Source: Eledone cirrhosa (Eukaryota). Taken from it: a stretch of DNA of 34,127 nt. The stretch spans positions 1 to 34,127 of the forward strand of contig CAXHJY010000339.1 of the NCBI GenBank assembly GCA_964016885.1. Direction: 5' to 3'. The notes beneath the pieces were generated by a model, which was not told where the DNA came from, made no database searches, and saw only the letters and a program-made list of their open reading frames with translations. Shown here one piece after another: positions 17,058 through 17,551 of the stretch (position 1 is its first letter; each line of letters begins with the position of its first letter). Both the position numbers and the translations under genes were made by a program.

Positions 17058-17172
17058 TATATATGTATATATATATATGTATGTATATATGTATATAAAT
17101 ATATATGTATATAAATATATATATATGTATATGTAATGTATAAGATCAAAAGATGGTTAAAAGAGTTCCACG

Positions 17173-17243
17173 TATTTTATTATGCGCATTTCAAAAACAA
17201 ATATCATCATGCGATGACATTTGCGTTTTCGTCAGATAAAATA
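17173..17243 (-). ncRNA. Type I hammerhead ribozyme (mirror copy)
   Basis: Reverse complement of 17335-17405 with one stem II difference; core CTGACGA corresponds to plus tcgtcag at 17229-17235. Confidence 0.87.
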
Positions 17244-17334
17244 GGGAGACATGATTTTAAATCAACATATCATATATGTTGATTTAAAACTGCACTATTC
17301 ACAAGTGTTTTTTAACCTTCATATCATGTCTCCC

Positions 17335-17405
17335 TATTTTATCTGACGAAAACGCAAATGTCATTGCATGATGATATTTGTTTTTGAAATGCGCATAATA
17401 AAATA
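17335..17405 (+). ncRNA. Type I hammerhead ribozyme
   Basis: Stem I tattttat/ataaaata; core CTGACGA 17343-17349; 16-position stem II aaacgcaaatgtcatt/gatgatatttgttttt (one mismatch, loop gcat); GAAA 17386-17389; palindromic stem III atgcgcat; predicted cleavage after ATA at 17397. Confidence 0.9.
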
Positions 17406-17551
17406 CATGGAACTCTTTTAACCATCTTTTGATCTTATATATTATTTATACTCCAGTCCTACAAACTGTAGAGTGCTACTTAACCGATATCTGCATTGCT
17501 TTATTGTACTACAATAAAACTCACCTCCTACATTATATATGTATATGTATA

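Follow-up and report, generated by a model that had tools for sequence, protein, structure and literature searches.

A 301-bp palindrome with hammerhead motifs on opposite strands, probably a truncated fold-back insertion of a PLE-like repeat

Hammerhead motifs are known from the pLTRs of Penelope-like elements (PLEs), where dual motifs lie ~100–700 bp apart on opposite strands (PMC4209133, Cervera and de la Pena 2014), and the twin opposite-strand arrangement described below is in this sense already published. That study further describes a small palindromic helix III in PLEs of fly, rotifer, shrimp and mosquito, gives a stem II of 7–8 bp and a stem I of 4–5 bp for the usual metazoan PLE motif, and reports for PLE hammerheads in vitro no cleavage as monomers and low cleavage as dimers. 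Insertions of EN+ PLEs show an adjacent inverted 5′-truncated copy, a 30–40-bp tail on one end and a bias towards (TA)n/microsatellite targets, and the function of the hammerhead in these elements has been called unclear (PMC8557442, Craig et al.). Inverted pLTRs are a known trait of PLEs, which are common in a shrimp genome (PMC3124438 and PMC8969392). In the case of Pen2a_Av, the inverted pLTR is 37 bp shorter than the direct pLTR and overlaps it by 15 bp; self-priming was put forward to explain such head-to-head structures with junction palindromes, and head-to-head is the most frequent arrangement (PMC3846280, Arkhipova et al.). In addition, the PLE tail has been reported to reflect two reverse-transcription start sites, and the hammerhead of an anole PLE to act with protein assistance and not to be needed for insertion in vitro (PMC11167929, Frangieh et al.). 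Retrozymes, in turn, are defined as tandem arrays (bioRxiv 10.64898/2026.07.22.740005). Our literature search returned no publication dealing with hammerheads within PLE palindromes of penaeids.

We analyzed a 301-bp palindrome at positions 17139–17439 of a DNA stretch of 34,127 nucleotides (hereafter the window), ~65% of which is simple repeat according to TRF. Self-BLAST showed that the two arms, 17139–17255 and 17323–17439, are reverse-complementary at 115 of 117 positions, the two mismatches being CpG/TpG-type sites. A preliminary description of this DNA had placed one hammerhead on each strand of the palindrome, such that a transcript of either strand would contain the antisense hammerhead first and the sense hammerhead last; arm comparison and a descriptor scan confirmed the twin motifs, and the order within the transcript held as well. 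The repeat unit proved larger and less symmetric than the palindrome, reaching from 17274 to ~17533. Its direct copy (17274–17439, plus strand) corresponds to the pLTR-like 3′ part of a repeat family and is cut off on its 5′ side at 17274, as indicated by a rise in depth in all four sequencing runs described below, while the 117-bp left arm (17139–17255, minus strand) is an inverted copy of the same 3′ part that does not include the tail.

The direct copy carries a type I hammerhead motif at 17335–17405 (plus strand; descriptor scan and folding) with a predicted cut at 17397/17398, after A17397, and the inverted copy carries its counterpart at 17173–17243 (minus strand), which folds like the plus copy and has its predicted cut at 17181/17180. 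Each motif combines an 8-bp stem I (TATTTTAT/ATAAAATA), the core elements CTGACGA (CUGACGA in RNA) and GAAA, a 36-nt stem II region and a self-complementary stem III (ATGCGCAT); in the plus motif, stem II has 12+3 bp, stem III is AUGCGCAU and the triplet is AUA. The arm motif thereby shows the features that define a type I hammerhead, namely CUGANGA, GAAA, NUH and three helices with helix I open, and receives no score from the Rfam models. It ends, in the plus copy, 34 nt short of the arm end and sits within the terminal repeat. Scanning both strands of the whole window returned three matches, the two arm motifs and a third at 16944–17010 (plus strand), as compared to a mean of 0.025 after block-wise dinucleotide shuffling of the window (200 shuffles, of which 5 had one match and none had two or more). 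In this comparison the arm motifs, one being a copy of the other, are not independent. Rfam found no hammerhead at the gathering threshold in the whole window; at E≤10 in 16400–17600 its 52 matches were mostly to miRNA hairpin models and included no hammerhead family. A relaxed scan added one weak match (27393–27439) and called no motif in the palindromes 16517–16626, 25029–26734 and 26848–27199. The motif of this family had no match in viral_contigs or in two scans of metagenome_contigs.

When compared to the published PLE hammerheads (PMC4209133), the arm motifs share the type I topology, the intact core and a palindromic stem III suited to dimer formation, and they lie on opposite strands 92 bp apart, against the ~100–700 bp cited above. 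With 8 bp in stem I and 12+3 bp in stem II they have longer stems than usual, and the base of stem II in this copy is A-U instead of G10.1–C11.1; A>G and T>C variants do occur within the family. The sequence is also distinct from the single shrimp motif in the supplementary alignment of PMC4209133, and the family's motifs are absent from one supplement file of PMC8557442 and from file 2 of PMC4209133. The hammerhead repeat family may nevertheless have been catalogued already.

The 67-bp spacer between the arms contains an inner palindrome (17255–17289; self-BLAST and junction view) with 16-bp arms around a 3-nt loop, and the left side of the unit mirrors the right side from 17274 on, minus 34 nt. 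Fold-back by self-priming likely took place at this palindrome, with 34 nt skipped before the long arm begins. In comparison with Pen2a_Av (PMC3846280), the junction palindrome measures 16 bp here and the overlap 15 bp there, and the inverted copy is shorter by 34 nt here and by 37 there. On the right side only, a non-repetitive, tail-like extension of ~94 bp (17440–17533, plus strand) continues beyond the arm before giving way to (TA)n; it is covered in four runs up to 17520, the limit to which run coverage was examined, and its end at 17533 is taken from the window sequence. This extension is optional among copies, some of which end at +1 and +11. The left flank (17056–17138) is likewise a TA-rich microsatellite, as read from the sequence, and (TA)n on both flanks hides any target-site duplication. 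An AT-rich or microsatellite target is as expected for a PLE, and the loose ends of other copies also consist of (TA)n or (CA)n.

The locus thus displays a 5′-truncated copy, an adjacent head-to-head inverted copy and a palindrome at their junction, as PLE insertions do. With the EN+ PLE insertions described in PMC8557442 and PMC3846280 it has in common the head-to-head inverted copy, a tail-like extension on one side only, the TA-microsatellite target and a hammerhead within the repeat, from which it departs in containing no ORF and in its tail of ~94 bp instead of the published 30–40 bp.

To place the locus among its relatives, four public runs (X1, X4, X6 and X9, out of 11 listed) were compared with the 265-bp stretch 17256–17520, which matched 4,546 contigs in X1, 66 contigs in X4, 35 contigs in X6 and 4,963 raw reads in X9. 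The arm is therefore part of a very abundant repeat family, depth in these runs being no copy number. In all four runs the depth rises sharply at 17274: X9 reads number 0+3 at 17256–64, 39+3 at 17265–73 and 315+371 at 17274–82, and the depth in X1 is 33,772, 20,135 and 443,731 over the same intervals, with a peak of 2.37 million. This jump indicates that only a small share of copies has the junction seen here. The depth of the extension amounts to about one third of the peak in X1 and stays high in X9. Upstream of 17274, 271 reads in X9 and 24 contigs in X1 continue into other sequence, and a 318-nt contig in X6 carries 216 nt further 5′; these loose ends point to a longer repeat family. At the other end, copies enter (TA)n after 17440, after 17450 and after the tail end.

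Opposite-strand joints were found at 17272/17438 in X1 and X9 and at 17278/17398 in X9 (3 reads, 2 starts, 3-nt ambiguity), and in X6 the end of the extension recurs in inverted form, over 28 nt, ahead of 17275, so that other copies evidently bear inverted 3′ pieces of other lengths. A version of the junction forming a perfect palindrome through a 7-nt deletion is present in 14 contigs of X1. Among the joints listed for the four runs, neither the window's own long-arm junction nor a head-to-tail joint was found, the latter being weak evidence for the family as a whole given the short contigs. On these family data, the palindrome is a form that a longer repeat takes only occasionally upon insertion, and not the conserved unit. 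As a separate observation, all listed opposite-strand joints start within 17272–17278, with the perfect palindrome of the 14 contigs centred there, which has the appearance of a fold-back hot spot. The runs listed for this stretch include no RNA run and have no bearing on expression.

Taken together, these results make it very probable that the locus is a dead, truncated, ORF-less PLE insertion of the fold-back type, whose pLTR end with the hammerhead was mirrored during integration. Both the PLE parentage of the hammerhead family and the self-priming step are what we infer by analogy with the described insertions. In such an event, the element's RT/GIY-YIG protein, provided by a longer copy at another site, would have nicked the TA microsatellite, and the element RNA would have been reverse-transcribed from its 3′ end. 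Reverse transcription would have stopped at 17274 and folded back there via the 16-nt junction palindrome, after which 34 nt would have been skipped and the new DNA recopied out to 17439, placing a mirrored hammerhead on the other strand. Several observations weigh against a PLE origin: the only ORF remnant of this kind discussed here (25029–26734, see below) belongs to another family, the tail and the stems are longer than usual, and the listed joints are more fixed in their start than random truncation predicts. No RT or GIY-YIG ORF was linked to the hammerhead family, whose upstream sequence was seen as 30-nt loose ends only.

The clustering of joints at 17272–17278 would also be compatible with a short, non-autonomous element whose 5′ end is fixed. 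According to this explanation, the family would be a SINE- or retrozyme-like PLE derivative whose transcript begins near 17274, folds back recurrently and spreads without an ORF in cis. We regard it as unlikely, even though the inverted joints listed for X1, X9 and X6 and that of the window all begin within the same few nucleotides, the perfect-palindrome junction accounts for a depth of 25,421 out of 35,197 at 17267, and the very abundant family occurs in runs under three organism labels. Against it stand the many copies that extend upstream of 17274, as detailed above for X9 and X6, and, with the reservation already made about short contigs, the lack of a listed head-to-tail joint of the kind found in tandem retrozyme arrays. 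The mechanism giving rise to the palindrome would in any event be identical to that of a PLE insertion.

Non-LTR retrozymes are comparable to this family in being short, non-coding, PLE-related and present in high copy, with a type I hammerhead (10.64898/2026.07.22.740005). Retrozyme units are arranged head-to-tail, which allows two motifs to dimerise in cis, whereas the unit analyzed here is head-to-head, which prevents a cis dimer, and with tandem units as the defining feature the locus was not classed as a non-LTR retrozyme.

A stronger version of the derivative explanation, in which ribozyme cleavage also sets the end of the inverted piece, is in our estimation quite improbable. At the joint 17278/17398 in X9, an inverted copy starts where the hammerhead is predicted to cut; this is only a lead and not evidence, as it concerns one locus and, with so few joints observed, a coincidence has a chance near 10% by rough estimate. 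Should a joint at the cut site recur across copies, this would constitute genomic evidence for cutting of the template by the PLE hammerhead during integration, and the fixed fold-back at 17272–17278 would represent a programmed self-priming site yielding thousands of hairpin loci. The value of the family lies in its many copies combined with an intact, long-stemmed hammerhead, and a census of breakpoints relative to the cut site could test the role of the ribozyme during integration.

The preliminary description had also proposed that the 117-bp fold-back would compete with ribozyme folding and that the cassette could cut read-through transcripts in both directions. The competition is reproduced by our calculations and is won by the fold-back: for the full palindrome RNA, the computed energy is −204.0 kcal/mol for the fold-back and −106.0 kcal/mol for the forced ribozyme fold, a cost of ~98 kcal/mol. 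In this RNA the computed pairing probability of stems I and II is 0.00, as compared to 0.61–0.90 for stem I and 0.96–0.97 for stem II in an RNA starting inside the spacer. Since the fold-back is favored to this extent, cutting of read-through RNA in either direction is unlikely; instead, folding into one long hairpin, and not self-cleavage, is predicted for such RNA. The antisense arm would be made first and pair with the sense arm, and the hammerhead at this locus is for this reason predicted to be silent in read-through RNA. If the palindrome is transcribed, it is a possible source of dsRNA.

Similarly, the idea that the whole palindrome is itself the unit, either as a MITE-like DNA element or as a selected cassette for two-way RNA cutting or dsRNA production, appears highly improbable. 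It could draw on the near-perfect terminal inverted arms of 117 bp, on the intact state of both motifs and on the read-through hairpin of −204 kcal/mol. The junction is, however, rare among copies, the inverted pieces differ in length, and the tail on one side spoils the terminal symmetry, on which grounds MITE was rejected as a class; moreover, the ribozyme fold would be far less stable than the fold-back, and the same inversion is seen in unrelated families of the window. Twin opposite-strand ribozymes can arise mechanically, and a selected two-way function is unnecessary to account for them.

It is very unlikely that the palindrome is an assembly or library artefact, i.e. a fold-back chimera of a long read. 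Some libraries are known to produce palindromes artificially, and the exact junction is spanned by no listed record. Against an artefact, the arms differ at two sites, 34 internal nt and the tail are missing from the left arm, and inverted joints of the same type occur in independent short-read runs.

Read as a fold-back PLE insertion, the locus itself matters little, as scars of PLE insertion are numerous in this animal genome rich in microsatellites; the hammerhead would more plausibly act in the parent element. The placement of the two motifs on opposite strands prevents them from pairing with each other in cis. Stem III has a computed energy of +4.7 kcal/mol as a monomer hairpin and −10.5 kcal/mol as a two-molecule duplex, and on this model the hammerhead of the parent element would work as a dimer via its palindromic stem III or with the help of a protein. 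A heterodimer with the neighboring hammerhead at 16944–17010 was considered and dropped, since its stem III duplex has a computed energy of only −1.6 kcal/mol and since the A arm would be sequestered.

In the RNA of an active parent element the hammerhead is likely to be under selection. Among 40 of the 69 variable sites of the family, 15 fall inside the motif. None of the 12 core positions varies, versus 31 of 148 positions elsewhere (p=0.07, 40 of 69 variants), and pairing is retained in 8 of 10 changes at stem positions (p=0.11 against transitions, same 40 of 69 variants); the N7 position and loop II vary freely. The two variants that break pairing are 17385 T>C and 17391 G>T; the listed variant 17350 A>G could restore pairing for the former, the data giving no phase for these two sites. 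From sequence comparison, this pattern is only suggestive of conservation of the hammerhead core and stems across copies.

The window contains five inverted units in total (16517–16626, 16832–16957, the 17139–17439 palindrome, 25029–26734 and 26848–27199). Upstream of the palindrome, a neighboring unit of a second family (16832–17055, plus strand; descriptor scan) consists of a 126-bp fold-back palindrome (16832–16957) and the third hammerhead match (16944–17010). This hammerhead has the stem I and core of the arm motifs, a different stem II and a stem III (AUAUGUAU) that remains self-complementary via G-U pairs. Such an exchange of stem II with retention of stem I, core and a self-complementary stem III is consistent with a real motif class. 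The 126-bp palindrome ends within the ribozyme core after CTGATG, leaving a full motif on one strand only.

A further head-to-head unit at 25029–26734 (minus strand; tblastn and inverted arms) lies 8 kb away from the palindrome and is a 5′-truncated, broken and frameshifted PLE ORF remnant covering a thumb/linker and a GIY-YIG-type endonuclease region. It is accompanied by an inverted copy (~200 bp) of its 3′ end, the arms (25029–25227 and 26533–26734) being 95% alike. An exhaustive protein search with the frame 25964–26359 returned 754 relatives at E≤0.001, which we take to be PLE proteins, partly by recognised RT and endonuclease motifs; a word-index protein search with the ORF remnant gave 11 candidates, none at E≤0.001. 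When used as tblastn queries, five relatives aligned over 26540–25765 in three frames, with E down to 5e-20. Ten relatives scanned yielded one weak RVT_1 and one weak GIY-YIG match, both below the Pfam cut-off, and Pfam found no PLE domain in six frames of the window. The head-to-head architecture is therefore also found around a coding body, in a different family of this genome, which does not prove a PLE link for the hammerhead family. Beside the remnant, 24906–25026 is further non-repetitive sequence, perhaps a tail.

Additional features were observed in the window. At 26848–27199, a head-to-head palindrome of ~350 bp with 95% complementarity lies within (TA)n, and each of its arms has a hammerhead-like CCGAAGA...GAAA with an altered core that the descriptors do not call. 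A GC-rich element of 52–60 bp ending in (TA)n is present in three copies (16517–16626, 4908–4968 and 33154–33207), the first of which also contains 36 bp of its 3′ end in inverted orientation. The open frame at 28888–29184 (plus strand) encodes a terminal C2H2 zinc-finger-like motif (Pfam E ~0.001, below cut-off) and is possibly a LINE end or an exon. Finally, related repeats of ~130 bp, 92% and 85% alike and with one pair in tandem, are found at 22072–22209 and 33641–33967.
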